Below, in pieces: positions 1 to 16,778 of a stretch of 29,070 nt of DNA (positions within the stretch are counted from its first letter, which is position 1; every line of letters begins with the position of its first letter). Source of the DNA: a virus. Taxonomy: Duplodnaviria; Heunggongvirae; Uroviricota; Caudoviricetes. Both the position numbers and the translations under genes were made by a program. Where the stretch lies: the IMG/VR virus record IMGVR_UViG_2526164628_000008; one strand, given 5' to 3'. The notes beneath the pieces were generated by a model, which did no database searches, was not told the origin of the DNA, and was given only the letters and a program-made list of their open reading frames with translations.

Positions 1-389
1 GATGTTTTTCAATAAAGACATACTTCATTTCAGGCGCTTCGCGAAGTATGTCGCGGCCTTTTGGAGGATAGCCAGCTCTTCATCCCGTTCTGCCAGCTGG
101 CGTTTGAGACGTGCAATCTCGGTAGACATCTCCAGTTCACGTTCAGAAGACGTCTGCTGATTTTGCTGTTTACTGCGCCAGTTGTAGAGCTGTGATTCAT
201 ACAGGCTGAGTTCACGGGCTGCGGCAGTAACACCGATGCGTTCAGCAAGCTTCAGGGCTTCACTGCGAAATTCAGGCGAATGCTGTTTACGGGGTTTTTT
301 ACTGGTTGATACTGTTTTTGTCATGTGAGTCACCTCTGACTGAGAGTTTACTCACTTAGCCGCGTGTCCACTATTGCTGGGTAAGATCA
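1..389 (-). mobile_element. IS3 (partial copy; the element continues beyond the window start)
   Basis: Terminal sequence TGATCTTACCCAGCAATAGTGGACACGCGGCTAAGTGAG on the minus strand ending at 389 matches the IS3 end as I recall it; encodes the IS3 OrfA protein. The OrfB part lies left of the window. Confidence 0.8.
25..324 (-). CDS. insE: IS3 OrfA transposase subunit (InsE-like), helix-turn-helix protein
   Basis: Translation MTKTVSTSKKPRKQHSPEFRSEALKLAERIGVTAAARELSLYESQLYNWRSKQQ... recognised as IS3-family OrfA. Start may be the upstream ATG at 331-333 (MTHMTK...). Confidence 0.8.
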   Translation of the reverse strand: MTKTVSTSKKPRKQHSPEFRSEALKLAERIGVTAAARELSLYESQLYNWRSKQQNQQTSSERELEMSTEIARLKRQLAERDEELAILQKAATYFAKRLK

Positions 390-1153
390 GTCAGTTTTAA
401 CACGTTAGCCTCTAATGTTTTGCTTGGCCACCCTGTTTCTTGTGCACCACATTGACCAAGAATTCCATAGTTGCTAGTTTGACCATCAGGAAATTCCACT
501 GTAGCAATTAGGTCAAACCCAGCATCACCAGATGTGGGAGCTTTATTTATTTCCCTTGTGTTTAAACTACAAACTCCAAGATCTTTTCCTAAAATTTGTA
601 GAGCATTCCGAAGATTCGTTCCATAATATTTTTGCCTATCATCGGAGTTAGCATCAAAAATTCTTACGGTGCCATGTGCAGGTAAGAGAGAAATCATTGC
701 AACTTTACATACTCTGGCAAAGCTCTTTGCCCAACGTTGTGCTGCTCCTCTAATCGACTTAAAGGATCTAAGTCTAGAGCAACAAAGGAGAAAAACATAT
801 ATTCTTTGTTGTTGGTTTAGATTTTCTTTAATAATTATCTCATCACCTGAAATTATAAATGGATATATCTTTCCAAGAGCGCTTTCTCTATATTCGAGTT
901 GTGTCCAAACATCTTCTAGTTGCTCTTCAAAACGATCATTTCTCTCTGCGTCTCCATCAATTTCTTCTTCAAAATTACATTCTTCATCAATTTCTTCAAC
1001 ACTTGTCATGCCGAATTTTCTTACTGAATCTAAATCATTTTTATGCAGAGAGTTACGTCCGATATAATTAATCACCGTGAGTAACTCGGCTAAATCTGCA
1101 AACAAATGGGGAGAGTTGGGATGCATAACTCCTACTTCAAAAGTCATCATCAC
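371..1153 (-). CDS. hypothetical protein (cargo gene B); acidic N-terminal half; last 5 codons and stop supplied by the IS3 terminus, so the native C-terminus is lost or altered
   Basis: 260-aa ORF, AT-rich, overlaps the upstream gene by 17 nt (operon). The stop TAG at 371-373 lies inside the IS3 inverted repeat (IS3 ends at 389). Start uncertain among three tandem ATGs at 1145-1153 or the ATG near 1126 preceded by AGGAG. Confidence 0.55.
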   Translation of the reverse strand: MMMTFEVGVMHPNSPHLFADLAELLTVINYIGRNSLHKNDLDSVRKFGMTSVEEIDEECNFEEEIDGDAERNDRFEEQLEDVWTQLEYRESALGKIYPFIISGDEIIIKENLNQQQRIYVFLLCCSRLRSFKSIRGAAQRWAKSFARVCKVAMISLLPAHGTVRIFDANSDDRQKYYGTNLRNALQILGKDLGVCSLNTREINKAPTSGDAGFDLIATVEFPDGQTSNYGILGQCGAQETGWPSKTLEANVLKLTDLTQQ

Positions 1154-2258
1154 CTCTGCTATTTTTCTCTGCTATTTCAGAACCTATAAGCTTAATATGT
1201 TTATTGATTCTTCGTGCTACTTCATGAGCCTGTCTATCATACTCTACTGTGGCAACCATGCCTGCTGCATCTATCAAAGCCGCTTCAACTTGATAAAGTA
1301 ACTGGAGAAAGTCCTTAGTAATATCAGATGTCAATTGGTAGGCCACTGCGAGTGGAGCCCCCATTCGGAATTGCTCCAATGCCTTAGGGCTACTAACAAC
1401 AGCAGCTAATTCTCTTAAATTACGTGACTCTCCAACACGAGTTTTTTTATCCTCACCTTTTTTATATAACCACTCAGTTAGCTCTTTTATTTCTTTGTTC
1501 TTTAAGCTATTAGAGTTGATAATAGGATGACTTGGTATTGTGTCTCCATCGTCTTCGATTGAAACTCCGACAAATTGGCCTAACCGCTCATCAGCAAGTG
1601 CTGTTGATAATACTGAAAATTTAATCGTTTCTTCATCTAGTTTTTCAATACCATAAAAATCATTTTCTTTAATGATTTCATACACCGCTAAAGCGTCTAG
1701 GTTACGCTTGATATGATCCCTACGACTGCCAATAGCTCTGGCAACCTCATAGTAGCGTAGCATCGGATCCTGATTTGCATTGGTATAATCAAAAAGCTGT
1801 TTAATATATCGAGCTTTTGATAAGGGCTCCCATTGTTTGACACCAGTAATATGTCTGAAACCAAGATACGGAAGAATCTCTTCTCTTGTTTGGCGCTCAA
1901 TGACAGGAACACGATCGACTGTATGTTTTGCATTTGATGCAATTTCTCGTAGTCGAGCACTTGGATTTTCACATAGTGTCGGATCGCGTAATAATTTAAC
2001 TGCGGATAGGCGACGGTTTCCTTCAACTACAATGTACTTCCCCGGCGCGACACTGTCAGGAATGACAATCAATGGTTCTCCAGGGAAAAAACCATTTTCC
2101 GCAATAGCACTCATTAGATCTTCGATAGATGTTGAGGTTGCTATGTAGTTAATCATTCCCAATTGGTCACGAGACACGCCTTCAGGAAGTCTTGGGTTTT
2201 CTGTGTCAAGTTCCAAATCATCTAGCGGAACATAAAGTATTTCTGAATCAGCAATCAT
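1137..2258 (-). CDS. ParB N-terminal domain (ParB/Srx fold) protein, cargo gene A
   Basis: 373-aa ORF with GGAG ribosome-binding site 7 nt upstream. N-terminal region (LYVPLDDLELDTENPR ... PLIVIPDSVAPGKYIVVEGNRRLSAVKLL) fits the ParB N-terminal pattern including a GxRRxxA box (EGNRRLSA). C-terminal ~270 aa unrecognised. Confidence 0.6.
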   Translation of the reverse strand: MIADSEILYVPLDDLELDTENPRLPEGVSRDQLGMINYIATSTSIEDLMSAIAENGFFPGEPLIVIPDSVAPGKYIVVEGNRRLSAVKLLRDPTLCENPSARLREIASNAKHTVDRVPVIERQTREEILPYLGFRHITGVKQWEPLSKARYIKQLFDYTNANQDPMLRYYEVARAIGSRRDHIKRNLDALAVYEIIKENDFYGIEKLDEETIKFSVLSTALADERLGQFVGVSIEDDGDTIPSHPIINSNSLKNKEIKELTEWLYKKGEDKKTRVGESRNLRELAAVVSSPKALEQFRMGAPLAVAYQLTSDITKDFLQLLYQVEAALIDAAGMVATVEYDRQAHEVARRINKHIKLIGSEIAEKNSRGDDDF

Positions 2259-2315
2259 CTGGATCTCCGTTGAACATGTCTACGAGAAGGAGCACAAAGT
2301 TATTTCATAACATGC

Positions 2316-2321
2316 AATATA
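2316..2321 (-). promoter_or_regulatory. putative -10 element (TATATT on minus strand) for the cargo operon
   Basis: AT-rich region upstream of the ParB-like gene; TATATT hexamer about 58 nt upstream of the ATG. No clear -35. Confidence 0.2.
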
Positions 2322-2484
2322 CTCATTCTGTAGCCATAAATGAATTATTCATGATGTAAGATTCGCGTTGATGTGCGTGAATTCGCAAGTAATTTTATAG
2401 CAAGGTTTGATTGGGTATCGTTAGCACTGGCGCGGTTTCAACGTATTCATGCACCTGCATTAAAACCGACCCATGAAGCGGGCG

Positions 2485-2503
2485 GGCGAGGCGGGGAAAG
2501 CAC
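2485..2503. other. cos site, 19-nt cohesive-end sequence of P2-type phages
   Basis: GGCGAGGCGGGGAAAGCAC matches the P2 cohesive-end sequence as I recall it; located in the ORF-free GC-rich region just upstream of the portal gene Q, where cos lies in P2. Confidence 0.7.
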
Positions 2504-2672
2504 TGCGCGCTGGCGGTGGTGCTGATTTTATTTTTTCAGCGTCTGAGCGCGTCGTGATGGCGTTTAGATTGTTAGCCGGGGCGTTGGTGTGTCTGCGGGC
2601 TGTTTTGTGCGGTGGTGAGCGTGTGAGAGCGTGATGGCGGGTTGTAAAAAAGCCGCCCGCAGGCGGCGATGT

Positions 2673-3707
2673 TCAGCCGTTGTCAGTGTCCAGTGAGTAG
2701 TTTTTAAAGCGGATGACCTCCTGACCGAGCCAGCCGTTTATCTCGCGGATCCTGTCCTGTAACGGGATAAGTTCATTGCGGACAAAGACCTTTGCCACTT
2801 TCTCAATATCACCCAGCGACCCGACGTTCTCCGGCTTGCCACCCATCAACTGAAAGGGGATGCGGTGCGCGTCCAGCAGGTCAGCGGCGCTGGCTTTTTT
2901 GATATTAAAAAAATCGTCCTTCGTCGCCACTTCACTGAGGGGGATAATTTTAATGCCGTCGGCTTTCCCCTGTGGGGCATAGAGAAACAGGTTTTTAAAG
3001 TTGTTGCGGCCTTTCGACTTGACCATGTTTTCGCGAAGCATTTCGATATCGTTGCGGTCCTGCACGGCATCGGTGACGTACATGATGTATCCGGCATGTG
3101 CGCCGTTTTCGTAATACTTGCGGCGGAACAGCGTGGCCGACTCATTCAGCCAGGCAGAGTTAAGGGCGCTGAGATATTCCGGCAGACCGTACAGCTCCTG
3201 ATTAATATCCGGCTCCAGCAGGTGAAACACGGAGCCGGGCGCGAAAGGTGTCGGCTCGTTGAAAGACGGCACCCACCAGTAAACATCCTCCTCCACGCCA
3301 CGACGGGTATATTTGGCCGGTGAGGTTTCCAGTCTGATGACCTTACCGGTGGTGCTGTAACGCTTTTCCAGAAACGCATTACCGAACACCAGAAAATCCA
3401 GCACAAAACGGCTGAAATCCTGCTGGGAAAGCCACGGGTGCGGGATAAACGTTGAAGCCAGAATATTACGTTTGACGTAAATCGGTGAGCTGTGATGCAC
3501 GGCAGCACGCAGACTTTTTGCCAGGCCGGTAAAGCTGACCGGTGGCTCATACCATCTGCCGTTACTGATGCACTCGACGTAATCCAGAATGTCACGCCGG
3601 TCGAGTACCGGTACCGGCTCACCAAAGGTGAATGCCTCCATTTTCGGGGCGCTGGCGGTCATTGTTTTTGCCGCAGGTTGCGGTGTTTTCCCTTTTTTCT
3701 TGCTCAT
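2673..3707 (-). CDS. Q: portal protein Q (P2 gpQ)
   Basis: 344 aa, same length and recognisable sequence as P2 Q (MSKKKGKTPQPAAKT...); adjacent to P on the same strand. Confidence 0.9.
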   Translation of the reverse strand: MSKKKGKTPQPAAKTMTASAPKMEAFTFGEPVPVLDRRDILDYVECISNGRWYEPPVSFTGLAKSLRAAVHHSSPIYVKRNILASTFIPHPWLSQQDFSRFVLDFLVFGNAFLEKRYSTTGKVIRLETSPAKYTRRGVEEDVYWWVPSFNEPTPFAPGSVFHLLEPDINQELYGLPEYLSALNSAWLNESATLFRRKYYENGAHAGYIMYVTDAVQDRNDIEMLRENMVKSKGRNNFKNLFLYAPQGKADGIKIIPLSEVATKDDFFNIKKASAADLLDAHRIPFQLMGGKPENVGSLGDIEKVAKVFVRNELIPLQDRIREINGWLGQEVIRFKNYSLDTDNG

Positions 3708-5479
3708 CAGTAAAACTCCAGAATGGTGGATGTCAGCGGAGTGCTGATACCGGCGGTGAGTGGCTCATTTAACAGGGCGTGCATGGTCGCCCAGGCGAGG
3801 TCGGCGTGGCTGGCTTCCTCGCTGCGGCTGGCCTCATAGGTGGCACTGCGTCCGCTGCTGGTCATGGTCTTGCGGATAGCCATAAACGAGCTGGTGATGT
3901 CGGTGGCGCTGACGTCATATTCCAGACAGCCACGGCGGATAACGTCTTTTGCCTTGAGCACCATTGCGGTTTTCATTTCCGGCGTGTAGCGGATATCGCG
4001 CGCGGCGGGATAGAACGAGCGCACGAGCTGGAACACGCCGACACCGAGGCCGGTGGCATCAATTCCGATGTATTCGACGTTGTATTTCTCGGTGAGTTTG
4101 CGGATGGATTCAGCCTGAGTGGCAAAGTCCATGCCTTTCCACTGGTGACGCTCAAGGATCCTGAATTTGCCACCGGCCACCACCGGCGGTGCCAGTACCA
4201 CGCATCCGGCGCTGTCGCCACGGTGTGACGGGTCGTAACCAATCCATACCGGGCGGGAGCCGAACGGATTCGCGGCAAACGGCGCATAGTCTTCCCATTC
4301 TTCCAGCGTGTCGACCATGCAGCGTTGCAGCTCCTCGAACGGGAACACCGATGCCTTGTCGTCAACAAATTCACACATGAACAGGTTTTTAAAATCGTCG
4401 GCGCTGTTTTCACGTTTGAGCTGCTCAATGTCGAACAGCGTGCAGCCGCCTTTCAGGGCATCCTCAATGGTGACAATCTGCCGCCACTGGCCGTCCGCAC
4501 AGAGAAGACCTCCGGCAAGGGCGTTATGACTGACGTCGATTTCCACGCGTTCGGCGGCGCTGGCGCGTCCCCGGTTGAACAGTTCACCCGACCAGAACGG
4601 GTAGGCGTCGTGCGCCAGCGTGGACGGGGTGGAGAAATAGGTCGAGCGCAGGTGACTCTGTGAGGCCATACCTGATGCCACCTTACGCAGTACCTGAAAA
4701 TTCGGGATCCAGAAAATCTCGTCGACGTACAGGTCGCCGTTATGGCTCTGTGCGGTGTTGGAGTTGGTGCCGAGAAAAATCAGTTTTGCGCCGTTATTGC
4801 CCAGGACAATCGGGTCACCGGTCAGGTCAACGTCAACCAGTCGGGCAAAGGCGATGATGTATTCGCGGAACACATACGCCTGCGTTTTACTGGCCGACAG
4901 AAAAATCTGGTTATGACCGGTTTTCAGGGCGCGCAGCAGCGCCTCGCGGGAAAAATAAAACGTCGCGCCAATCTGGCGGGATTTCAGGATATCGCGGATG
5001 CGGTGCTCAAGCCCGGCGCGATACCAGTGCAACTGATATTCGAAAGACTGCTCAAAGAAAATCTGCTCCAGCTTTTCGATAGCCTCGTCGCTGAAAAAAT
5101 TCTTTTTCGGTTTGCGCCGCCCGCCTTTGTTGCGGTTAGCGATGTTCGGATTAAGGTCTGCCTCGTTGCCGGTCTGGTTGTAGCGGTTTACCCGTGCCAG
5201 TCGTTCAATCTGGCGTCCGAGCAGGTCAATTTCCTTGAAGTCACCGCCGGTTTTCTGCGGTTTTATGATGAGCTGGGTCAGCCGCGCTTCCAGACTCATT
5301 TCGACACGGCTGATGGGGGCAACGCTGTCCCAGCCGTCGCGCTGTTTCCAGCTCTGCACCGTCGGGCGTTTCATCTGCAACATGGCGGCAATCTGCGGCA
5401 CGGAAAACCCCTGCCAGTACAGCAGCGCCGCCTGACGACGCGGGTCGTGTAAAAGAGTGGTGTCTGTGGTGATGGTCAT
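3707..5479 (-). CDS. P: terminase large subunit / ATPase P (P2 gpP)
   Basis: 590 aa from MTITTDTTLLHDPRRQAALLYWQGF...; the ORF track's upstream in-frame ATG adds 10 aa. P2-like order Q-P divergent from O. Confidence 0.9.
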   Translation of the reverse strand: MTITTDTTLLHDPRRQAALLYWQGFSVPQIAAMLQMKRPTVQSWKQRDGWDSVAPISRVEMSLEARLTQLIIKPQKTGGDFKEIDLLGRQIERLARVNRYNQTGNEADLNPNIANRNKGGRRKPKKNFFSDEAIEKLEQIFFEQSFEYQLHWYRAGLEHRIRDILKSRQIGATFYFSREALLRALKTGHNQIFLSASKTQAYVFREYIIAFARLVDVDLTGDPIVLGNNGAKLIFLGTNSNTAQSHNGDLYVDEIFWIPNFQVLRKVASGMASQSHLRSTYFSTPSTLAHDAYPFWSGELFNRGRASAAERVEIDVSHNALAGGLLCADGQWRQIVTIEDALKGGCTLFDIEQLKRENSADDFKNLFMCEFVDDKASVFPFEELQRCMVDTLEEWEDYAPFAANPFGSRPVWIGYDPSHRGDSAGCVVLAPPVVAGGKFRILERHQWKGMDFATQAESIRKLTEKYNVEYIGIDATGLGVGVFQLVRSFYPAARDIRYTPEMKTAMVLKAKDVIRRGCLEYDVSATDITSSFMAIRKTMTSSGRSATYEASRSEEASHADLAWATMHALLNEPLTAGISTPLTSTILEFY

Positions 5480-5652
5480 GAATACCTCGCCGTGATGAAT
5501 ACACGGCAAGGCTACTGAGTCGTGCCCTGCGATTCGCTAAGGTGCTGTTGTGTCAGTGATAAGCCATCCGGGACTGATGGCGGAGGATGCGCATCGTCGG
5601 GAAACTGATGCCGACATGTGACTCCTCTAATCACTATTCAGGACTCCTGACA
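5480..5652. promoter_or_regulatory. divergent late-promoter region between P and O (expected Ogr-dependent PP/PO)
   Basis: Inferred from P2 organisation only; I could not identify the activator-binding dyad confidently in the sequence. Confidence 0.35.
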
Positions 5653-6507
5653 ATGGCAAAAAAAGTCTCAAAATTCTTTCGTATCGGCGTTGAGGGTGAC
5701 ACCTGTGACGGGCGTGTCATCAGTGCGCAGGATATTCAGGAAATGGCCGAAACCTTTGACCCGCGTGTCTATGGTTGCCGCATTAACCTGGAACATCTGC
5801 GCGGCATCCTGCCTGACGGCATTTTTAAACGTTATGGCGATGTGGTCGAACTGAAGGCCGAAAAGATTGACGATGATTCGGCGCTGAAAGGCAAATGGGC
5901 GCTGTTTGCGAAAATCACCCCGACCGATGACCTTATCGCGATGAACAAGGCCGCGCAGAAGGTCTATACCTCAATGGAAATTCAGCCGAACTTTGCCAAT
6001 ACCGGCAAATGTTATCTGGTGGGTCTGGCCGTCACCGATGACCCGGCAAGCCTCGGCACGGAATACCTGGAATTCTGCCGCACGGCAAAACACAACCCCC
6101 TGAACCGCTTCAAATTAAGCCCTGAAAACCTGATTTCAGTGGCAACGCCCGTTGAGCTGGAATTTGAAGACCTGCCTGAAACCGTGTTCACCGCCCTGAC
6201 CGAAAAGGTGAAATCCATTTTTGGCCGCAAACAGGCCAGTGATGACGCCCGTCTGAATGACGTGCATGAAGCGGTGACCGCTGTTGCTGAACATGTGCAG
6301 GAAAAGCTGAGTGCCACTGAGCAGCGCCTCGCTGAGATGGAAACCGCTTTTTCCGCACTTAAGCAGGATGTGACTGACAGGGCGGATGAAACCAGCCAGG
6401 CATTCACCCGCCTGAAAAACAGTCTCGACAGCACCGAAAGTCTGACCCAGCAGCGCCGCAGCAAGGCCACCGGCGGTGGCGGTGATGCCCTGATGACGAA
6501 CTGCTGA
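5653..6507 (+). CDS. O: capsid scaffolding protein O (P2 gpO)
   Basis: 284 aa from MAKKVSKFFRIGVEGDTCDGRV...; the ORF track start at 5587 is an upstream in-frame extension. Confidence 0.9.
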   Translation: MAKKVSKFFRIGVEGDTCDGRVISAQDIQEMAETFDPRVYGCRINLEHLRGILPDGIFKRYGDVVELKAEKIDDDSALKGKWALFAKITPTDDLIAMNKAAQKVYTSMEIQPNFANTGKCYLVGLAVTDDPASLGTEYLEFCRTAKHNPLNRFKLSPENLISVATPVELEFEDLPETVFTALTEKVKSIFGRKQASDDARLNDVHEAVTAVAEHVQEKLSATEQRLAEMETAFSALKQDVTDRADETSQAFTRLKNSLDSTESLTQQRRSKATGGGGDALMTNC

Positions 6508-6565
6508 CCGGCGTCAGTCAGTCCGGGAAAACCTTCACGATTAACCCTTAATTTCAGGAAAAACT

Positions 6566-7639
6566 ATGCGCCAGGAAACCCGCTTTAAATTTAATGCCTA
6601 CCTGTCCCGTGTTGCCGAACTGAACGGCATCGACGCCGGTGATGTGTCGAAAAAATTCACCGTTGAACCGTCGGTCACCCAGACCCTGATGAACACCATG
6701 CAGGAGTCCTCTGACTTTCTGACCCGCATCAACATTGTGCCGGTCAGCGAAATGAAAGGGGAAAAAATTGGTATTGGTGTCACCGGCTCCATCGCCAGCA
6801 CCACCGACACCGCCGGTGGCACCGAGCGTCAGCCGAAGGACTTCTCGAAGCTGGCGTCAAACAAGTACGAATGCGACCAGATTAACTTCGATTTTTATAT
6901 CCGCTACAAAACGCTTGACCTGTGGGCGCGTTATCAGGATTTCCAGCTCCGTATCCGTAACGCCATTATCAAACGCCAGTCCCTTGATTTCATCATGGCC
7001 GGTTTTAACGGCGTGAAGCGTGCCGAAACCTCTGACCGCAACAGCAATCCGATGTTGCAGGATGTGGCGGTCGGCTGGCTGCAGAAATACCGCAATGAAG
7101 CCCCGGCGCGCGTGATGAGCAAGGTCACTGACGAGGAAGGGCGCACCACCTCTGAGGTTATCCGCGTGGGTAAGGGCGGTGATTATGCCAGCCTTGACGC
7201 ACTGGTGATGGATGCGACCAACAACCTGATTGAACCGTGGTATCAGGAAGACCCTGACCTTGTGGTGATTGTGGGACGTCAGCTACTGGCGGACAAATAT
7301 TTCCCCATCGTCAACAAGGAGCAGGACAACAGCGAAATGCTGGCCGCTGACGTCATCATCAGCCAGAAACGCATCGGTAACCTGCCGGCGGTACGCGTCC
7401 CGTACTTCCCGGCGGATGCGATGCTCATCACGAAGCTGGAAAACCTGTCCATCTACTACATGGATGACAGCCATCGCCGCGTGATTGAGGAAAACCCGAA
7501 ACTCGACCGCGTGGAGAACTACGAGTCAATGAACATTGATTACGTGGTGGAAGACTACGCCGCCGGTTGTCTGGTGGAAAAAATTAAGGTCGGTGATTTC
7601 TCCACACCGGCTAAGGCGACCGCAGAGCCGGGAGCGTAA
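6566..7639 (+). CDS. N: major capsid protein N (P2 gpN)
   Basis: 357 aa, MRQETRFKFNAYLSRVAELNGIDAG...; position after O. Confidence 0.92.
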   Translation: MRQETRFKFNAYLSRVAELNGIDAGDVSKKFTVEPSVTQTLMNTMQESSDFLTRINIVPVSEMKGEKIGIGVTGSIASTTDTAGGTERQPKDFSKLASNKYECDQINFDFYIRYKTLDLWARYQDFQLRIRNAIIKRQSLDFIMAGFNGVKRAETSDRNSNPMLQDVAVGWLQKYRNEAPARVMSKVTDEEGRTTSEVIRVGKGGDYASLDALVMDATNNLIEPWYQEDPDLVVIVGRQLLADKYFPIVNKEQDNSEMLAADVIISQKRIGNLPAVRVPYFPADAMLITKLENLSIYYMDDSHRRVIEENPKLDRVENYESMNIDYVVEDYAAGCLVEKIKVGDFSTPAKATAEPGA

Positions 7640-7642
7640 CCG

Positions 7643-8386
7643 ATGACGAGTCCCGCACAGCGCCACATGATGCGGGTCTCGGCAGCGATGACCGCGCAGC
7701 GGGAAGTCGCCCCGCTGCGACATGCAACTGTCTATGAGCAGATGCTGGTTAAGCTCGCCGCAGACCAGCGCACACTGAAAGCGATTTATTCAAAAGAGCT
7801 GAAGGCCGCGAAAAAACGCGAACTGCTGCCGTTCTGGTTGCCGTGGGTGAACGGCGTGCTGGAGCAGGGCAAAGGTGCACAGGATGACATTCTGATGACG
7901 GTCATGCTGTGGCGTCTGGATACCGGCGATATTGCCGGTGCGCTGGAGATTGCCCGTTATGCCCTGAAGTACGGTCTGACCATGCCGGGTAAACACCGCC
8001 GCACCCCGCCGTACATGTTCACCGAGGAGGTGGCGCTCGCGGCCATGCGTGCTCACGCTGCCGGTGAGTCTGTGGATACCCGCCTGCTGACGGAGACCCT
8101 TGAACTGACCGCCACGGCTGACATGCCTGATGAAGTGCGCGCAAAGCTGCACAAAATCACCGGTCTGTTTCTGCGTGACGGTGGTGATGCCGCAGGGGCG
8201 CTGGCGCACCTGCAACGTGCGACACAGCTCGACTGTCAGGCAGGCGTCAAAAAAGAGATTGAACGACTGGAGCGGGAGCTGAAACCGAAGCCGGAGCCGC
8301 AGCCCAAAGCGGCCACCCGTACCCCGCGTAAGACCCGGAGCGTGACACCGGCAAAACGTGGACGCCCGAAAAAGAAAGCCAGTTAA
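7643..8386 (+). CDS. M: terminase small subunit / endonuclease M (P2 gpM)
   Basis: 247 aa, position and sequence consistent with P2 M. Confidence 0.88.
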   Translation: MTSPAQRHMMRVSAAMTAQREVAPLRHATVYEQMLVKLAADQRTLKAIYSKELKAAKKRELLPFWLPWVNGVLEQGKGAQDDILMTVMLWRLDTGDIAGALEIARYALKYGLTMPGKHRRTPPYMFTEEVALAAMRAHAAGESVDTRLLTETLELTATADMPDEVRAKLHKITGLFLRDGGDAAGALAHLQRATQLDCQAGVKKEIERLERELKPKPEPQPKAATRTPRKTRSVTPAKRGRPKKKAS

Positions 8387-8485
8387 CAACCGAATGCGCC
8401 CCGCGCCAGGGCGGCACGCCGGTCAGTGAGGGTGAATCACCTGACACTGCACCGGCGTCCACCGCCCGACTTTTCAGAGGTGGTC

Positions 8486-8995
8486 ATGATGACGCTGATT
8501 ATTCCGCGAAAGGAGGCTCCCGTGTCCGGTGAGGGTACGGTGGTCATCCCGCAACCGGCAGGCGACGAGCCGGTGATTAAAAACACGTTCTTTTTTCCCG
8601 ATATCGACCCGAAGCGCGTCCGGGAACGTATGCGCCTTGAGCAGACCGTCGCCCCCGCCCGTCTGCGTGAGGCTATCAAGTCAGGCATGGCGGAGACAAA
8701 TGCGGAGCTGTACGAGTATCGCGAACAGAAAATTGCCGCCGGTTTTACGCGTCTGGCGGACGTCCCGGCGGACGACATCGACGGTGAAAGCATCAAAGTT
8801 TTTTACTACGAGCGCGCCGTGTGTGCGATGGCGACCGCGTCGCTTTATGAGCGTTATCGCGGCGTGGATGCCAGTGCGAAAGGCGACAAGAAGGCCGACA
8901 GCATTGACAGCACCATTGATGAACTGTGGCGGGATATGCGCTGGGCGGTGGCGCGTATCCAGGACAAGCCGCGCTGCATCGTGAGTCAAATCTGA
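8486..8995 (+). CDS. L: head completion/stabilisation protein L (P2 gpL)
   Basis: 169 aa from MMTLIIPRKEAPVSGEG...; stop overlaps the X start (ATGA-type overlap at 8993-8997). Confidence 0.88.
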   Translation: MMTLIIPRKEAPVSGEGTVVIPQPAGDEPVIKNTFFFPDIDPKRVRERMRLEQTVAPARLREAIKSGMAETNAELYEYREQKIAAGFTRLADVPADDIDGESIKVFYYERAVCAMATASLYERYRGVDASAKGDKKADSIDSTIDELWRDMRWAVARIQDKPRCIVSQI

Positions 8996-9198
8996 TGAAG
9001 ACCTTTGCGCTACAGGGCGACACGCTCGACGCCATTTGTGTCCGGTATTACGGGCGCACTGAGGGCGTGGTTGAGACCGTGCTCGCCGCAAATCCGGGAC
9101 TGGCTGAACTGGGTGCGGTGCTGCCACACGGCACCGCCGTCGAACTGCCCGACGTTCAGACCGCGCCCGTGGCTGAAACTGTCAATCTGTGGGAGTAA
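8995..9198 (+). CDS. X: tail protein X (P2 gpX)
   Basis: 67 aa, MKTFALQGDTLDAICVRYYGRTEGVVETVLAANPGLAELG...; internal start within the longer ORF 8926-9198. Confidence 0.85.
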   Translation: MKTFALQGDTLDAICVRYYGRTEGVVETVLAANPGLAELGAVLPHGTAVELPDVQTAPVAETVNLWE

Positions 9199-9201
9199 CG
9201 C

Positions 9202-9483
9202 ATGACAGCAGAAGAAAAAAGCGTCCTGTCGCTTTTCATGATTGGGGTGCTGATTGTTGTCGGCAAGGTGCTTGCCGGTGGTGAACCCATCACCCCGCGT
9301 CTGTTTATCGGGCGCATGTTGCTCGGCGGTTTTGTCTCGATGGTTGCCGGTGTTGTTCTGGTGCAGTTTCCTGACCTGTCACTGCCTGCGGTGTGCGGCA
9401 TCGGTTCCATGCTGGGTATCGCCGGTTATCAGGTGATTGAGATTGCCATTCAGCGCCGCTTTAAGGGCAGGGGGAAACCGTAA
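9202..9483 (+). CDS. Y: holin Y (P2 gpY)
   Basis: 93 aa with hydrophobic transmembrane segments; immediately precedes the endolysin. Confidence 0.88.
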   Translation: MTAEEKSVLSLFMIGVLIVVGKVLAGGEPITPRLFIGRMLLGGFVSMVAGVVLVQFPDLSLPAVCGIGSMLGIAGYQVIEIAIQRRFKGRGKP

Positions 9484-9980
9484 TGCCGGTAATTAACACG
9501 CATCAGAATATCGCCGCCTTTCTCGACATGCTGGCCGTGTCCGAAGGGACGGCGAATCATCCGCTGACGAAAAACCGGGGCTATGACGTGATAGTCACCG
9601 GACTGGACGGAAAGCCGGAAATTTTCACCGACTACAGTGACCACCCGTTCGCGCATGGCCGACCGGCGAAGGTGTTTAACCGTCGCGGTGAAAAATCCAC
9701 GGCCTCCGGTCGCTATCAGCAGCTTTACCTGTTCTGGCCGCACTACCGCAAACAGCTTGCCCTGCCGGATTTCAGTCCGTTGTCACAGGACAGGCTCGCC
9801 ATTCAGTTGATCCGCGAACGCGGTGCACTGGATGACATCCGGGCGGGACGCATTGAGCGCGCCATTTCACGCTGTCGCAATATCTGGGCGTCCCTGCCGG
9901 GTGCCGGTTACGGTCAGCGTGAGCATTCACTGGAAAAACTGGTCACCGTCTGGCGTACCGCCGGCGGCGTACCGGCTTAA
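9483..9980 (+). CDS. K: endolysin K (P2 gpK)
   Basis: 165 aa, MPVINTHQNIAAFLDMLAVSEGT...; lysis cassette position. Confidence 0.9.
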   Translation: MPVINTHQNIAAFLDMLAVSEGTANHPLTKNRGYDVIVTGLDGKPEIFTDYSDHPFAHGRPAKVFNRRGEKSTASGRYQQLYLFWPHYRKQLALPDFSPLSQDRLAIQLIRERGALDDIRAGRIERAISRCRNIWASLPGAGYGQREHSLEKLVTVWRTAGGVPA

Positions 9981-9994
9981 ACGGAGTAAACACC

Positions 9995-10420
9995 ATGAAG
10001 AAATTATCCCTTTCACTGATGCTGAACGTGTCGCTGGCGCTGATGCTGGCACTGTCCCTGATTTACCCGCAGAGCGTGGCCGTCAGTTTTGTCGCCACCT
10101 GGGCGATTCTGGCGACGGTTATCTGTGTGGTTGCCGGTGGTGTCGGCGTGTATGCCACGGAGTATGTGCTGGAACGCTACGGGCGGGAGCTGCCGCCGGA
10201 ATCGCTGGCCGTGAAGATTGTCACGTCGCTGTTTTTGCAGCCGGTGCCGTGGCGCAGACGGGCGGCGGCTCTGGTGGTGATGGTGGCGACGTTTATCTCG
10301 CTGGTCGCTGCCGGGTGGATTTTTACCGCGCTGATTTATCTCGTGGCGTCGCTGTTTTTCCGGTTGATGCATACGGCCTGCCGCCAGCGTCTTGAGGGGC
10401 GGAAACCATGTCAAGGCTGA
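9995..10420 (+). CDS. lysA: lysis timing/membrane protein LysA
   Basis: 141 aa, strongly hydrophobic multi-pass membrane protein after K. Confidence 0.85.
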   Translation: MKKLSLSLMLNVSLALMLALSLIYPQSVAVSFVATWAILATVICVVAGGVGVYATEYVLERYGRELPPESLAVKIVTSLFLQPVPWRRRAAALVVMVATFISLVAAGWIFTALIYLVASLFFRLMHTACRQRLEGRKPCQG

Positions 10421-10851
10421 TGACTGTGCTGATTGTGTTGTTATCGCTGGCGGTGGCCGGTCTGTTTCTGGTGAAACACAAAAATGCCAGCCTGCGCGCC
10501 TCGCTGGACAGGGCGAACAATGTCGCCAGTGGGCAGCAGACGACCATCACCATGCTGAAAAATCAGCTTCATGTTGCACTCACCAGGGCAGACAAAAACG
10601 AGCTGGCGCAGGTGGCACTGCGTCAGGAACTGGAGAACGCCGCGAAGCGTGAAGCACAGCGCGAGAAAACCATCACGAGGTTACTCAATGAAAACGAAGA
10701 TTTTCGCCGCTGGTACGGTGCTGACCTGCCTGATGCTGTGCGCCGGTTGCACCAGCGCCCCGCCTGCACCGACGCCAGTGATTGTCCACAACGCCTGCCC
10801 GAAAGTGAGTCTTTGCCCGATGCCGGGCAGCGACCCGCAGACGAACGGTGA
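10408..10851 (+). CDS. lysB: LysB, Rz-like inner-membrane spanin subunit
   Basis: N-terminal transmembrane anchor followed by a charged coiled-coil-like region; contains the embedded lysC in the +1 frame. Exact start uncertain. Confidence 0.85.
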   Translation: MSRLMTVLIVLLSLAVAGLFLVKHKNASLRASLDRANNVASGQQTTITMLKNQLHVALTRADKNELAQVALRQELENAAKREAQREKTITRLLNENEDFRRWYGADLPDAVRRLHQRPACTDASDCPQRLPESESLPDAGQRPADER

Positions 10852-10978
10852 TTTAAGTGCCGATATCCGGCAGCTTGAGAACGCGCTGGCGCGCTGTGCC
10901 AGCCAGGTAAAAATGATTAAACACTGTCAGGACGAAAACGATGCTCAAACCCGACAGCCTGCGCAGGGCGCTGACTGA
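10688..10978 (+). CDS. lysC: LysC, Rz1-like outer-membrane lipoprotein spanin subunit
   Basis: 96 aa from MKTKIFAAGTVLTCLMLCAGC with lipobox LCAGC, proline-rich mature part; begins inside lysB in a different frame. Confidence 0.85.
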   Translation: MKTKIFAAGTVLTCLMLCAGCTSAPPAPTPVIVHNACPKVSLCPMPGSDPQTNGDLSADIRQLENALARCASQVKMIKHCQDENDAQTRQPAQGAD

Positions 10979-11408
10979 TGCCGTCACGGTGCTGAAAACT
11001 AACCCCGATATGCTGCGGATATTCGTGGATAACGGGAGTATTGCCTCCACACTGGCGGCGTCGCTGTCATTCGAAAAGCGTTACACGCTCAATGTGATTG
11101 TGACCGACTTTACCGGTGATTTTGACCTGCTCATTGTGCCGGTGCTGGCGTGGCTGCGGGAAAATCAGCCCGACATCATGACCACCGACGAAGGCCAGAA
11201 AAAGGGCTTCACGTTTTATGCAGACATCAACAATGACAGCAGCTTTGATATCAGTATCAGCCTGATGCTGACCGAGCGCACGCTGGTCAGTGAGGTGGAC
11301 GGCGCACTGCATGTGAAGAATATCCCGGAACCCCCGCCGCCGGAGCCGGTCACCCGCCCGATGGAGCTTTATATCAATGGCGAACTGGTGAGTAAGTGGG
11401 ATGAATGA
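10941..11408 (+). CDS. R: tail completion protein R (P2 gpR)
   Basis: 155 aa, position and sequence consistent with P2 R. Confidence 0.88.
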   Translation: MLKPDSLRRALTDAVTVLKTNPDMLRIFVDNGSIASTLAASLSFEKRYTLNVIVTDFTGDFDLLIVPVLAWLRENQPDIMTTDEGQKKGFTFYADINNDSSFDISISLMLTERTLVSEVDGALHVKNIPEPPPPEPVTRPMELYINGELVSKWDE

Positions 11409-11853
11409 GTTTAAGCGTTTTGAAGACCGGCTGACCGGGCTGATTGAATCGCTGTCACCGTCAGGGCGTCGGCGACTGAGCGCCGAACTGGCGAAACGTC
11501 TGCGTCAGAGTCAGCAGCGTCGGGTGATGGCACAGAAAGCCCCGGACGGCACCCCCTACGCGCCACGTCAGCAGCAGAGCGCCAGAAAAAAGACCGGTCG
11601 CGTTAAGCGAAAAATGTTTGCGAAACTTATCACCAGTCGTTTTTTGCATATCCGCGCCAGCCCGGAACAGGCATCAATGGAATTTTACGGCGGGAAGTCG
11701 CCGAAAATCGCCAGTGTGCATCAGTTCGGTCTGTCGGAAGAAACCCGGAAAGACGGTAAGAAAATTGATTATCCGGCGCGTCCTCTGCTCGGCTTTACCG
11801 GTGAGGATGTGCAGATGATTGAAGAGATTATCCTGGCTCACCTCGACCGTTAG
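11401..11853 (+). CDS. S: tail completion protein S (P2 gpS)
   Basis: 150 aa, overlaps the R stop; P2 order. Confidence 0.88.
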   Translation: MNEFKRFEDRLTGLIESLSPSGRRRLSAELAKRLRQSQQRRVMAQKAPDGTPYAPRQQQSARKKTGRVKRKMFAKLITSRFLHIRASPEQASMEFYGGKSPKIASVHQFGLSEETRKDGKKIDYPARPLLGFTGEDVQMIEEIILAHLDR

Positions 11854-11919
11854 TTGTGCCATTCCCGACACCTCATCGTCACATTGCCGCCGGTATGACC
11901 CGGCGGCATCCTTCCCGTT

Positions 11920-12555
11920 ATGAACACTCTCGCAAATATTCAGGAACTCGCGCGCGCACTGCGCAACATGATACGCACCGGCATTATCGTCGAAACCGAC
12001 CTTAACGCCGGTCGCTGCCGTGTGCAGACCGGCGGCATGTGCACCGACTGGCTTCAGTGGCTGACCCATCGCGCCGGACGTTCGCGCACGTGGTGGGCAC
12101 CTTCCGAGGGGGAACAGGTGCTGATTCTGGCCGTGGGCGGTGAACTCGACACAGCGTTCGTTCTGCCGGGGATTTATTCCGGTGATAACCCCGCGCCGTC
12201 TGCGTCGGCGGATGCCCTGCATATCCGTTTCCCTGACGGGGCGGTGATTGAGTATGAACCCGAAACCAGTGCACTCACGGTAAGCGGAATTAAAACGGCC
12301 AGCGTGACGGCTTCTGATTCTGTTACTGCCACGGTGCCGGTGGTCATGGTGAAAGCGTCAACCCGCATCACCCTGGACACCCCGGAGGTGGTCTGCACCA
12401 ACAGACTGATTACCGGCGCGCTGGAAGTGCAGAAGGGCGGGACGATGCGCGGCAACATTAAACATACCGGCGGTGAACTCTCATCAAACGGTAAGGTACT
12501 GCATACCCATAAACACCCCGGCGACAGCGGCGGCACAACCGGGAGTCCTCTATGA
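11920..12555 (+). CDS. V: baseplate spike protein V (P2 gpV)
   Basis: 211 aa, MNTLANIQELARALRNMIRTGIIVE... Confidence 0.9.
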   Translation: MNTLANIQELARALRNMIRTGIIVETDLNAGRCRVQTGGMCTDWLQWLTHRAGRSRTWWAPSEGEQVLILAVGGELDTAFVLPGIYSGDNPAPSASADALHIRFPDGAVIEYEPETSALTVSGIKTASVTASDSVTATVPVVMVKASTRITLDTPEVVCTNRLITGALEVQKGGTMRGNIKHTGGELSSNGKVLHTHKHPGDSGGTTGSPL

Positions 12556-12899
12556 CAGCGCGTTATCTTGGAATGAATCGCAGTGATGGCCTGACTGTCA
12601 CTGACCTTGAGCATATCAGCCAGAGTATCGGCGATATCCTGCGCACGCCGGTCGGCTCACGGGTGATGCGTCGTGATTACGGCTCATTGCTGGCGTCAAT
12701 GATTGACCAGCCGCAGACCCCGGCGCTTGAGTTACAGATTAAGGTCGCCTGTTACATGGCGGTGCTGAAATGGGAACCCCGCGTCACCCTGTCATCCGTC
12801 ACCACTGAGCGCAGTTTTGACGGGCGAATGACAGTTACGTTAACCGGCCAGCACAACGACACCGGCCAGCAACTTTCGTTAACCATCCCTGTGAGTTGA
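12552..12899 (+). CDS. W: baseplate protein W (P2 gpW)
   Basis: 115 aa, overlaps the V stop. Confidence 0.9.
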   Translation: MTARYLGMNRSDGLTVTDLEHISQSIGDILRTPVGSRVMRRDYGSLLASMIDQPQTPALELQIKVACYMAVLKWEPRVTLSSVTTERSFDGRMTVTLTGQHNDTGQQLSLTIPVS

Positions 12900-12903
12900 A
12901 ACC

Positions 12904-13812
12904 ATGCCGATTATCGACCTGAACCAGCTACCCGCACCGGATGTGGTCGAGGAGCTGGACTTTGAAACCATTCTTGCCGAACGCAAGGCGACACTGATTT
13001 CCCTTTACCCGGAAGACCAGCAGGAGGCGGTTGCCCGTACCCTGACGCTGGAATCCGAGCCTCTCGTCAAACTGCTGGAGGAAAATGCTTATCGTGAGCT
13101 TATCTGGCGTCAGCGTGTGAATGAGGCCGCACGGGCGGTAATGCTGGCCTGTGCCGCCGGTAATGACCTTGATGTGATTGGTGCCAATTACAACACCACA
13201 CGCCTGATTATCACCCCGGCAGATGATTCGACCATCCCGCCGACACCGGCAGTGATGGAATCTGACACCGATTATCGGCTGCGTATTCAGCAGGCGTTTG
13301 AAGGTTTAAGCGTCGCCGGGTCGGTGGGTGCCTATCAGTATCATGGCCGCAGTGCCGACGGGCGTGTCGCGGATATCTCTGTCACCAGTCCGTCTCCGGC
13401 CTGCGTCACTATCTCTGTGCTGTCACGTGAAAATAACGGTGTCGCATCCGAAGACCTGCTGGCGGTGGTGCGTAACGCCCTTAATGGCGAGGACGTCAGG
13501 CCGGTGGCCGACCGCGTGACCGTGCAGTCTGCCGCCATCGTTGAATACCAGATAAACGCCACGCTTTACCTTTACCCTGGTCCCGAAAGCGAACCCATAC
13601 GCGCTGCCGCCGTGAAAAAACTGGAAGCGTATATCACGGCACAGCACCGGCTGGGGCGCGATATCCGACTGTCTGCCATTTATGCCGCTTTGCATGTGGA
13701 AGGCGTGCAGCGTGTCGAACTGGCTGCACCGCTGGCCGATATCGTGCTTAACAGCACGCAGGCGTCTTTCTGTACCGAATACCGCGTCGTGACCGGAGGC
13801 TCGGATGAGTGA
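12904..13812 (+). CDS. J: baseplate protein J (P2 gpJ)
   Basis: 302 aa, position after W. Confidence 0.9.
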   Translation: MPIIDLNQLPAPDVVEELDFETILAERKATLISLYPEDQQEAVARTLTLESEPLVKLLEENAYRELIWRQRVNEAARAVMLACAAGNDLDVIGANYNTTRLIITPADDSTIPPTPAVMESDTDYRLRIQQAFEGLSVAGSVGAYQYHGRSADGRVADISVTSPSPACVTISVLSRENNGVASEDLLAVVRNALNGEDVRPVADRVTVQSAAIVEYQINATLYLYPGPESEPIRAAAVKKLEAYITAQHRLGRDIRLSAIYAALHVEGVQRVELAAPLADIVLNSTQASFCTEYRVVTGGSDE

Positions 13813-14335
13813 TTCGCGACTGCTGCCGACCGGCTCATCACCGCTTGAAGTCGCCGCCGCAAAAGCCTGTGCGGAAATTGAAAAAACGCCGGTCAGGATT
13901 CGTGAGCTGTGGAACCCGGACACCTGCCCGGCAAATTTGCTGCCGTGGCTGGCGTGGGCGTTTTCGGTCGACAGATGGGATGAAAAGTGGCCGGAAGCGA
14001 CAAAACGCGCCGTTATCCGCGATGCCTATTTCATCCACTGTCATAAAGGCACTATCGGCGCAATCCGGCGTGTGGTGGAGCCGCTCGGCTATCTCATCAA
14101 CGTGACGGAGTGGTGGGAAAACAGTGACCCGCCCGGCACCTTCCGGCTCGATATTGGTGTACTGGAAAGCGGTATCACAGAGGCAATGTATCAGGAAATG
14201 GAACGGCTGATTGCTGATGCCAAACCTGCAAGCCGTCACCTTATTGGTCTGAACATTACCCGGGACATTCCCGGCTACCTGTTCGCCGGTGGTGTGGCTT
14301 ATGACGGCGATGTAATTACGGTTTACCCCGGATAA
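13805..14335 (+). CDS. I: baseplate protein I (P2 gpI)
   Basis: 176 aa, overlaps the J stop. Confidence 0.9.
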   Translation: MSDSRLLPTGSSPLEVAAAKACAEIEKTPVRIRELWNPDTCPANLLPWLAWAFSVDRWDEKWPEATKRAVIRDAYFIHCHKGTIGAIRRVVEPLGYLINVTEWWENSDPPGTFRLDIGVLESGITEAMYQEMERLIADAKPASRHLIGLNITRDIPGYLFAGGVAYDGDVITVYPG

Positions 14336-14345
14336 GTGAGGAATA

Positions 14346-15538
14346 ATGAGCACAAAATTCAGAACCGTTATCACCACTGCCGGTGCAGCAAAGCTGGCAG
14401 CGGCAACCGCGCCGGGAGGGCGGAAGGTCAACATTACCACGATGGCCGTCGGGGATGGCGGTGGTAAATTGCCTGTCCCGGATGCCGGACAGACCGGGCT
14501 TATCCACGAAGTCTGGCGACATGCGCTGAACAAAATCAGCCAGGACAAACGAAACAGTAATTATATTATCGCAGAGCTGGTTATTCCGCCGGAGGTGGGC
14601 GGTTTCTGGATGCGTGAGCTTGGCCTGTACGATGATGCGGGAACGTTAATTGCCGTGGCGAACATGGCCGAAAGTTATAAGCCAGCTCTTGCCGAAGGCT
14701 CAGGGCGTTCGCAGACCTGCCGCATGGTCATCATCGTCAGCAGTGTGGCCTCAGTGGAGCTGACCATTGACACCACAACGGTGATGGCGACGCAGGATTA
14801 CGTTGATGACAAAATTGCAGAGCACGAACAGTCACGACGTCACCCGGACGCCTCGCTGACCGCAAAAGGTTTTACTCAGTTAAGCAGTGCGACCAACAGC
14901 ATGTCTGAAATGCTTGCCGCAACGCCAAAAGCCGTTAAGACGGTAATGGATGAAACGAACAAGAAAGCGCCATTAAACAGCCCTGTACTGACCGGAACGC
15001 CAACGACGCCAACTGCGCGACAGGGAACGAATAATACTCAGATCGCAAACACGGCTTTCGTTATGGCCGCGATTGCCGCCCTTGTAGACTCGTCGCCTGA
15101 CGCACTGAATACGCTGAACGAGCTGGCGGCGGCGCTGGGCAATGACCCGAATTTTGCTACCACCATGACTAATGCGCTTGCGGGTAAGCAACCGAAAGAT
15201 GCTACCCTGACGGCGCTGGCGGGGCTTGCTACTGCGGCAGACAGGTTTCCGTATTTTACGGGGAATGATGTTGCCAGCCTGGCAACCCTGACAAAAGTCG
15301 GGCGGGATATTCTGGCTAAATCGACCGTTGCCGCCGTTATCGAATATCTCGGTTTACAGGAAACGGTAAACCGAGCCGGGAACGCCGTGCAAAAAAATGG
15401 CGATACCTTGTCCGGTGGACTTACTTTTGAAAACGACTCAATCCTTGCCTGGATTCGAAATACTGACTGGGCGAAGATTGGATTTAAAAATGATGCCGAT
15501 GGTGACACTGATTCATTCATGTGGTTTGAAACGGGGGA
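14346..15538 (+). pseudogene. H: tail fibre protein H, 5' fragment (interrupted by IS2)
   Basis: N-terminal region MSTKFRTVITTAGAAKLAAATAPGG... is P2 H-like. The reading frame runs into the IS2 end at 15539 and continues as IS2-derived sequence to a stop at 15710. Confidence 0.88.
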
Positions 15539-15549
15539 TGGATTTGCCC

Positions 15550-16455: not shown

Positions 16456-16778
16456 TTTTTTGCACGCCCGTATTCAACGGCTTCTTTAAGGAGTTCATTT
16501 TCCATCGTTTTTTTGCCGAGCAGGCGCTGGAGTTCTTTAATCTGCTTCATGGCAGCAGCAAGTTCAGAGGCAGGAACGACCTGCTCTCCTGCGGCCACAG
16601 CAGTAAGACTTCCCTCCTGGTATTGCTTGCGCCAGAGAAATAACTGGCTGGCTGCCACACCGTGTTGCCGGGCAACAAGGGAGACCGTCATTCCCGGTTC
16701 AAAACTCTGCTGAACAATAGCGATCTTTTCCTGTGTAGTACGCCGTCTGCGTTTCTCCGGTCCTAAGACATCAATCAT
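16413..16778 (-). CDS. insC: IS2 OrfA (InsC)
   Basis: 121 aa from [29 protein letters not shown]...; GGAG ribosome-binding site upstream. The ORF track's longer version starts outside a plausible start. Confidence 0.92.

Follow-up and report, generated by a model that had tools for sequence, protein, structure and literature searches.

A ParB-fold protein, a nuclease-like partner and a C5 methyltransferase at the cos-proximal hotspot of a P2-like prophage: a candidate restriction-modification variant, interrupted by IS3 in one copy

Described systems closest to the cassette

The ParB nucleotide-switch fold is known so far mainly from chromosome segregation, with further roles in conflict and DNA modification (GmrSD, DndB, DpdB). 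The cassette treated here joins a gene of this fold (A) to a second gene (B) and to a C5 cytosine methyltransferase gene (M). PD-lambda-5, which consists of a homologue of A and a methylase, gives broad phage defence (PMC9519451). It resembles the cassette in its residence on E. coli mobile elements, in a homologous ParB-N region of ~190 aa, in having a methyltransferase partner and in having been described as RM-like. It differs in having two genes, an A protein of ~500 aa that gives a weak HEPN signal in its C-terminal part and a Dam-like methylase (MethyltransfD12), whereas the cassette has a 373-aa A in which no HEPN motif is conserved, B as an obligatory second protein and a C5-type methylase. 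Related as well are the Wphi genes gp98/gp96/mth ('RM-like system'), where gp98 is similar to A (E 9e-56) and gp96 to B (E 2e-25); the 'RM-like system' of Rousset et al. is a catalogue entry with a label, and no mechanism is given.

In GmrSD, BrxU and SspE, too, an NTP-binding module of the ParB/Srx superfamily is joined to a nuclease module, and prophages carry some of these enzymes. Unlike the cassette, they belong to the DUF262 branch, carry a DUF1524/HNH nuclease, lack a cognate methylase and target DNA that is modified. The subunits GmrS and GmrD may also be separate proteins (PMC12839542). In the cassette, GmrSD_N gave E values of 0.085-0.29, far below the cut-off, and DUF1524 was not found. 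Classical type II R-M systems are comparable in the convergent C5 methylase, which in the cassette is ~40% identical to M.HaeIII in a full-length alignment (E 3e-48), and in the winged helix and cleavage-like domain of B. They differ in that B, a putative nuclease, is without the canonical (D/E)xK lysine, and we know of no ParB-fold subunit in type II enzymes. The CTP-switch clamps ParB, KorB and Noc share with A the N-domain fold, the GxRR box and the ParB-type HTH that follows. In contrast to these, A has neither a ParA partner nor a ParA-binding motif, its C-terminal region is different and its context is that of a methylase and a nuclease-like protein; the CTP-hydrolysis residues of the clamps, box I Gln and box III Glu-Asn, are not conserved in A in a by-eye alignment.

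The cassette is already catalogued, although its mechanism has had no prior study. WP_000559726, WP_000142507 and WP_001143635 are listed in Table S5A of Rousset et al. 2022, and the family appears in Table S5B as system #2, 'RM-like system', represented by a B-family protein, a Wphi-type A and a C5 MTase. The term undescribed, used in the preliminary description, can thus no longer be kept. With 1136 occurrences among 18,150 P2 hotspot loci, the system is the second most common there (Rousset et al. 2022). A Wphi-type cassette, pFR107, had no detected activity against eight phages in host MG1655 (Rousset et al. 2022). Apart from this one, whose proteins are 33% (A) and 26% (B) identical to those of the present allele, no homologous cassette has had a direct test. 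Wphi lysogens may restrict lambda, a point that is not counted as evidence here. MG1655 is presumed to carry McrBC and Mrr. For this reason, and because the PD-lambda-5 assay by Vassallo et al. needed a deletion of the mrr region, the negative result with pFR107 is weak.

The locus and its interrupted copy

The cassette region lies between cos and the left edge of the window, the window being the whole 29,070-nt stretch of DNA that was analysed. The string GGCGAGGCGGGGAAAGCAC, read on the plus strand at 2485-2503, is taken to be the P2-type cos cohesive end, which puts the cassette into the hotspot near cos (gpA-gpQ) of a P2-like prophage. The portal gene Q of P2 (2673-3707, minus strand) is the conserved hotspot anchor on one side, and identical DNA in RefSeq is annotated 'phage portal protein'; the terminase (3707-5509) adds to the P2 context. 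With portal, terminase and cos string all present, the earlier assignment of the genes as P2-like hotspot cargo holds, as does the observation that the cargo is AT-rich relative to the backbone: GC is 0.36-0.39 over 501-2000 vs 0.52-0.63 over 2501-16500, with the P2 backbone put at 54-60%. The cassette is terminal in the genomes of phages HQ103 and Wphi. The AT-rich leader upstream of gene A (2259-2484, minus strand) is the presumed promoter region of an A-B operon; its position and composition fit such a role, and matches to promoter consensus sequences are weak.

Gene A, taken from the open reading frame list (1137-2258, minus strand), is intact and encodes a 373-aa protein, WP_000559726. 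Its overlap with B, noted at the outset from minus-strand frames at 1137-2258 and 371-1153, is confirmed and amounts to 11 nt; the final A codons, GGT GAT GAT GAC TTT TGA, hold ATG start codons of B, and the RefSeq start of B corresponds to window position 1147. For B the reading frame was correctly recognized, but the gene is not intact, its 329 codons being interrupted by IS3 after codon 253. The truncated gene (371-1147, minus strand) retains native codons 1-253 (390-1147), followed by five IS3-derived codons (DLTQQ) and a stop. This division rests on the homologous E. coli and phage genomes, which all begin to match at 390, and on the IS3 terminal repeat, TGATCTTACCCAGC..., which ends at 389. 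The left end of the IS3 element inside gene B thus occupies 1-389 (minus strand), with orfA at 25-333 (minus strand), which matches the HTH_Tnp_1 transposase profile (E 5.7e-10), and the terminal inverted repeat at 360-389; the latter, TGATCTTACCCAGCAATAGTGGACACGCGG, has a single occurrence in the window. The second IS in the window is not another IS3 copy.

Recovery of the intact B from relatives, as had been proposed, gave a product of 329 aa, WP_000142507. IS3 has cut off the last 76 residues and, judging from its sequence, the cassette copy in the window is dead; it is unsuited as a cloning reference. The methylase gene of this copy lies past the IS3, outside the window.

A conserved three-gene unit

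A and B are conserved together with a third gene, for a C5 methyltransferase, which follows B, and the description as a two-gene operon has to be enlarged accordingly. The triad is found in 12/12 hand-checked contexts and in 52/52 testable IMG/VR loci (out of 54), and it is intact in 48/48 complete E. coli genomes that bear this allele; the methylase is convergent with A-B except in two contexts. The contexts examined range over E. coli, Salmonella, Yersinia phage HQ103, Burkholderia, Pseudomonas, Methylophilaceae, Ferrovum and Pusillimonas, and the triad is also present in phages Wphi, 12474III and D14A. It is kept at ~25% B identity despite altered gene order. Among 12 cassettes the identities of A and B co-vary (r = 0.98), and 10 of these keep an MTase identity of 66-77%, even with A and B down to 33% and 26%. 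Conserved methylases beside fast-diverging endonucleases are common in R-M systems.

In intact relatives the methylase is a PF00145 C5 cytosine methyltransferase. It carries FSGCGG, PCQGFS, ENV and QERKR, which we recognize as the C5 MTase catalytic motifs, and an adjacent cognate methyltransferase with these motifs is present in all intact relatives. The best PADLOC matches are DruM/MTase_II, and PD-Lambda-5_B is not among the matches listed (25 families). Two E. coli strains deserve mention in this respect: ATCC 8739 (Crooks) carries this cassette at 99.9% identity and E. coli W has the Wphi-type. Both are without mcrBC and mrr (PMC3032704), and an active m5C methylase fits this background. 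Strain TW10590 likewise has an intact copy of M, B and A (NZ_CP035850.1, 1101841-1104893).

The ParB-fold and nuclease-like proteins and their putative function

Protein A begins with a ParB/Srx-fold N-domain, continues with a ParB-type HTH and then a helical C-terminal region, and closes with the acidic tail ...DDDF, whose last residue is Phe. The ParB fold first proposed for it is borne out, as the EGNRRLSA box at residues 79-86 (GNRR at 80-83) is invariant in 31 homologues; fold and GNRR box together suggest nucleotide binding. Is A, then, an ordinary ParB-type partition or replication protein that keeps the prophage as a plasmid? The ParB N-domain with its GxxR box and the HTH, both features of a ParABS protein, are present, relatives go under the name 'chromosome partitioning protein ParB' in some database entries, and a putative plasmid-partition system occurs in a quarter of P2 hotspots (Rousset et al. 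2022). That system, however, is made of different genes, StbA + Plasmid_stab_B. Beside A, no ParA or other partition ATPase was seen in the 12 hand-checked contexts, and its companions are invariably the methylase and the nuclease-like protein. On A, the scores of NCBIfam ParB/RepB models lie far under their cut-offs, and a reading of its N-terminal sequence did not reveal the ParA-binding motif LG(R/K)GL (as defined in PMC12704722). A partition role is highly improbable on these grounds.

Although it was earlier held that no named family could be matched, residues 9-192 of A match PD-Lambda-5_A (best E 1.6e-28, profile positions 7-196 of 440); 25 PD-Lambda-5_A profiles matched A, the total for PD-Lambda-5_A / PDC-M38A being 26, and a Burkholderia homologue behaves likewise. 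Such a match brings up a PD-lambda-5-type combination of RM and abortive infection, in which A would act as an effector RNase of the ParB-HEPN kind and kill or arrest infected cells, and the methylase and B would be sensor or antidote instead of a conventional restriction pair. PD-lambda-5 is labelled 'ParB/HEPN, methyltransferase' and viewed as a compacted RM+Abi system (PMC9519451), the label of Rousset system #2 includes HEPN Pfams, and A of the window holds RRINKH, an Rx4H string. The match of A to PD-Lambda-5_A is nevertheless only N-terminal: it stops at ~190 residues, and a full-length relationship that includes a C-terminal HEPN-like region was not found. A conserved HEPN Rx4-6H motif is absent from A, and profile and fold searches gave no HEPN match; R350 is nearly invariant, and the His of RRINKH is Asn or another residue in most of the 31 homologues. 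An effector RNase of this type is quite improbable, though less so than a partition protein.

No Pfam, NCBIfam or PADLOC profile matched B, even when 40 diverse relatives were included, which agrees with the initial failure to name a motif; PDB profiles gave no match either, and PHROGs matches are to unknown-function families only. As there is no Pfam or PADLOC model, defence finders currently miss the B family, which comprises 1223 representative clusters at 50% identity. The predicted structure has a winged helix and a weak PD-(D/E)xK restriction-endonuclease-like domain, and the fold neighbours found by Foldseek against the PDB are restriction-enzyme cleavage domains (BspD6I, FokI, MspJI). 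Candidate catalytic residues are D212...Q232-x-G and a relocated K243; the canonical (D/E)xK lysine is missing and the domain match is weak.

Might the cassette instead serve the phage itself? The methylase could shield phage DNA against restriction by the host, or the genes could form an epigenetic or addiction module, with A and B as accessory DNA-binding factors for the loading, targeting or regulation of methylation, like the ParB-like DndB or DpdB. ParB-fold proteins do act in DNA modification (DpdB, DndB; PMC12839542, PMC10853773), and ParB-fold/methyltransferase fusions are enriched in prophages (PMC12704722). The missing catalytic lysine of B would agree with an accessory role, as would the negative outcome with pFR107, the sole direct defence test. 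Against this, the methylase is a complete M.HaeIII-like enzyme, the structural neighbours of B cleave DNA in restriction enzymes, and A-B is strictly linked to M even where gene order has changed. In addition, separate IS insertions have struck B, one in the present copy and one in a prophage of Pseudomonas where A and M are intact, and knock-outs of B with M spared fit a costly B; in phage L-413C, just a remnant of A remains. To our knowledge, M.HaeIII-like methylases need no helper. Self-interest of the phage is thus an unlikely explanation, if somewhat less so than an effector RNase.

The defence role that was first suggested for the gene pair is judged plausible. The reading we favour, with a probability of roughly 0.55, is that the cassette represents an R-M variant with a two-subunit ParB-NTPase/nuclease restriction part that would attack unmethylated DNA, the window copy being dead. 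The label 'RM-like system', which Rousset et al. gave independently, speaks for it. The M.HaeIII-like C5 methyltransferase, possibly with GGCC specificity, would mark lysogen and prophage DNA. A and B are presumably coupled in translation and evolve in close step, and because of this they probably form a complex. Within it, A may be the DNA-engaging, NTP-gated subunit, through its predicted nucleotide-binding GxRR pocket and ParB-type HTH, and B the cleavage subunit, through its winged helix and PD-(D/E)xK-like domain (D212...Q232-x-G, K243); their joint target would be incoming DNA without the methyl mark. In function the pair would be analogous to two-subunit NTP-dependent restriction enzymes (McrB+McrC, GmrS+GmrD), with a cognate methylase added. 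That A merely reads the site of the methylase is disfavoured, since the HTH recognition helix varies between subfamilies whose methylases are 77% identical. A more specific proposal, which we put forward tentatively and consider rather doubtful, is that A-B constitutes a new restriction-enzyme class, where a CTP/NTP-gated ParB clamp with its own HTH would load onto DNA or scan it and license a dedicated, non-canonical PD-(D/E)xK partner to cleave DNA devoid of the m5C mark.

If intact copies restrict phage, the ParB nucleotide-switch fold would be tied to methylation-controlled DNA cleavage. Should the clamp proposal be true, the cassette would provide the first R-M system driven by a ParB clamp, and the cargo that ranks second in abundance at the P2 hotspot would be explained. 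The cassette family is also present in prophages of Pseudomonas, Burkholderia and methylotrophs; because of this spread and its abundance, its function is relevant to the way in which hosts are armed by temperate phages.

One distant cassette has a HhH-GPD glycosylase between B and M. Mismatch-repair accessories adjoin some m5C methylases, and by analogy the glycosylase could be such an accessory.

The locus and its IS3 insertion

The block called by ORF prediction as A (1137-2258, minus strand, 373 aa) and truncated B (371-1153, minus strand) is AT-rich (36-39% GC vs 52-63% in the flanking phage DNA, by a composition scan of the window). To its right lie GGCGAGGCGGGGAAAGCAC (2485-2503), presumably the P2 cohesive end, the P2 portal gene (2673-3707) and the terminase (3707-5509), with scaffold, capsid and tail genes beyond. 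The cos-proximal gpA-gpQ hotspot placement of the preliminary description is therefore correct. The host genes fieF (cation efflux) and pfkA at the right flank (26487-28550) indicate integration at the cpxP-fieF site, which is also occupied by Wphi1 of E. coli W (PMC3032704).

The left end of the window (1-389) is an IS3 end, with orfA at 25-333 and the terminal repeat TGATCTTACCCAGCAATAGTGGACACGCGG at 360-389; in every related E. coli genome, and in Yersinia phage HQ103, the match to the window begins only at 390. Intact B has 329 aa (WP_000142507), of which the window copy keeps residues 1-253, followed by five IS-derived codons (DLTQQ) and a stop. The lost segment holds R273, D292, R293 and R295, which do not vary even in relatives of only 23-30% identity. 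The cassette copy in the window is inactivated by IS3, and its gene B is, by its sequence, very probably non-functional. Gene A (WP_000559726) is intact; ATG codons of B fall within its last codons, an overlap that suggests translational coupling of the two.

Tail-fibre gene H is split into an N-terminal part (14346-15710) and a Gp34_trimer C-terminal part (16789-17703) by a second, different IS3-family element on the minus strand (rve transposase, 15550-16455; orfA, 16413-16823), all within 14346-17703. With insertions in both B and H, the prophage is probably defective. The second P2 hotspot position (Z/fun), between the tail-fibre assembly and sheath genes, is occupied by an AT-rich (37-46% GC) 299-aa open reading frame (18448-19347), for which Pfam and PADLOC searches gave no match.

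A conserved three-gene unit

Is this a two-gene system, as first proposed? The comparisons argue otherwise, as the conserved unit is A, B and a C5 methylase, M: of 54 IMG/VR loci with a B relative, two are interrupted by a contig end, and each of the other 52 has A immediately upstream and the methylase adjacent. E. coli TW10590, 100% identical to the window over 390-2700, has the order gpA, C5 DNA cytosine methyltransferase, B, A, portal Q, with the methylase convergent on B. The same arrangement of A, B and convergent M is found in HQ103, Salmonella P2-like prophages, coliphage vB_EcoM-12474III and Pseudomonas phage D14A, as well as in unrelated integrated elements of Burkholderia, Pseudomonas, Methylophilaceae, Ferrovum and Pusillimonas. 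All three genes are intact in 48 of 48 complete E. coli genomes with the window allele. In HQ103, the M open reading frame (1817-2761 of sequence L002, 314 aa) is intact yet unannotated in the GenBank/RefSeq records.

Two relatives with B about 25% identical retain the triad in altered order: M-A-B and A-B-(HhH-GPD glycosylase)-M. Some distant cassettes have a further gene between B and M (2735-3454 in comparison sequence L021, 7165-7929 in L007); it is an HhH-GPD DNA glycosylase in one, possibly for m5C-deamination repair, and an HNH_2 endonuclease in Methylophilaceae.

The identities of A and B track each other over 12 cassettes (r = 0.98), and in 10 of the 12 M identity stays at 66-77% even where A and B drop to 33% and 26% (e.g. 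Wphi). M carries FSGCGG, PCQGFS, ENV and QERKR, which we take to be C5 methyltransferase motifs, and its alignment with M.HaeIII covers the entire length (E 3e-48, ~40% identity). The alignment takes in the SRNR and GR arginines, which in M.HaeIII presumably contact the guanines of GGCC; GGCC is thus a reasonable guess for the putative target of M.

Relation to known systems

The pair had been presented as undescribed and without a match to a named family. Neither point survives for the locus as a whole or for A. The exact accession trio is listed as 'ParBc + DNA_methylase + hypothetical' in the P2 hotspot table of Rousset et al. 2022 (PMC9122126). System #2 there, labelled 'RM-like system' and counted 1136 times, has as its representatives a B-family protein, an A of the Wphi type and a C5 methylase. 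Homology of Wphi gp98 to A (E 9e-56) and of gp96 to B (E 2e-25) places the gene family in GenBank since the sequencing of Wphi. The 2025 ParB-CTPase fold survey mentions orphan ParB-like proteins carried by prophages as well as methyltransferase fusions; the A-B-M triad is not described in its searched passages (PMC12704722).

The first ~190 residues of A match PADLOC PD-Lambda-5_A (E 1.6e-28), with only the first ~45% of the profiles aligned. Other family profiles are sub-threshold (Pfam ParB_N, E 0.09; TIGR00180, 33 bits vs a cut-off of 58). The GNRR box, invariant among homologues, aligns with the GERR of a ParB. A partition function is highly improbable. The C-terminal third of A is helical, and structure comparison gave no informative neighbour for it.

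PD-lambda-5 is a two-gene 'ParB/HEPN, methyltransferase' system with broad protection, termed a compacted RM and Abi system, whose cloning required a host without the mrr region (Vassallo et al. 2022; PMC9519451). Where M is a C5 enzyme, the PD-lambda-5 methylase is Dam-like (MethyltransfD12), and the cassette has three genes; the two have nothing in common beyond the ParB module and the principle of a methylase partner, and other membership features fail. Does A act by a HEPN/Abi mechanism of this kind? Its RRINKH string resembles the HEPN Rx4H, but His is replaced by Asn in most homologues, and none of the HEPN families and structures searched matched. Such a mechanism is improbable. The locus is an already catalogued RM-like cassette, related to PD-lambda-5 through the ParB module; the preliminary description rested on a real but incomplete observation, and its interpretation was right only in part.

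Proposed function

The likeliest reading, given somewhat better than even odds (about 0.55), is that the cassette constitutes a restriction-modification-like system with a restriction part of two subunits. M would methylate self DNA, A, as a nucleotide-gated ParB-like DNA binder, would engage DNA, and B would cleave DNA that has no methyl mark. Several features favour this: the triad is strict, the methylase is complete and convergent, and A-B diverges fast beside a conserved methylase; B has a predicted restriction-enzyme-like fold, A is homologous to a validated defence protein, and the genes lie in the hotspot.

Gene B had been said to hold no nameable motif, and Pfam and PADLOC are indeed silent even for 40 diverse members of a family that forms 252 clusters at 90% identity and has 1223 representatives at 50%, a large blind spot in present defence annotation. 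In the model, D212 opens one beta strand and Q232-C-G closes the next, a PD...(D/E)xK-like geometry; K243, nearly invariant, follows in a low-confidence loop. In a Pseudomonas prophage contig (L072, 4908-7100), an IS3-family element interrupts the B homologue near residue 240, with A and M intact. The cassette has decayed in L-413C, the Yersinia phage of plague diagnostics, where B and M are both lost and a remnant of A alone is left (207-1199 of L018; 62% identity over residues 9-303). Two independent IS hits in B, one beside intact A and M, and the joint loss of B and M are circumstantial support for the restriction-modification reading. So is the absence of mcrBC and mrr from both E. coli W, with the Wphi-type cassette, and Crooks/ATCC 8739, with the window's cassette (PMC3032704); this absence would also offer a reason why a test in MG1655 might be negative.

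Against it stands one negative defence test: pFR107 ('RM-like', 3 genes), the Wphi-type cassette cloned from E. coli ATCC 9637, was among additional systems with no activity detected against eight phages (PMC9122126). The nuclease assignment of B is weak, the canonical lysine is missing, and the putative recognition helix of A varies between subfamilies whose methylases are nearly the same. Could the genes instead have a modification-accessory or purely phage-selfish role? This is unlikely. A ParB-switch-driven restriction enzyme, if true, would be a genuine surprise, tempered by a locus already flagged in the literature, a homologue that tested negative and a dead window copy.

The close subfamily has, at the C-terminus of A (residues 366-373, window 1137-1160), an acidic tail whose last residue is an invariant Phe (...DDDF); the tail is absent from A of Wphi, D14A and more distant relatives. 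It recalls the SSB C-terminal tail and may be a docking peptide.
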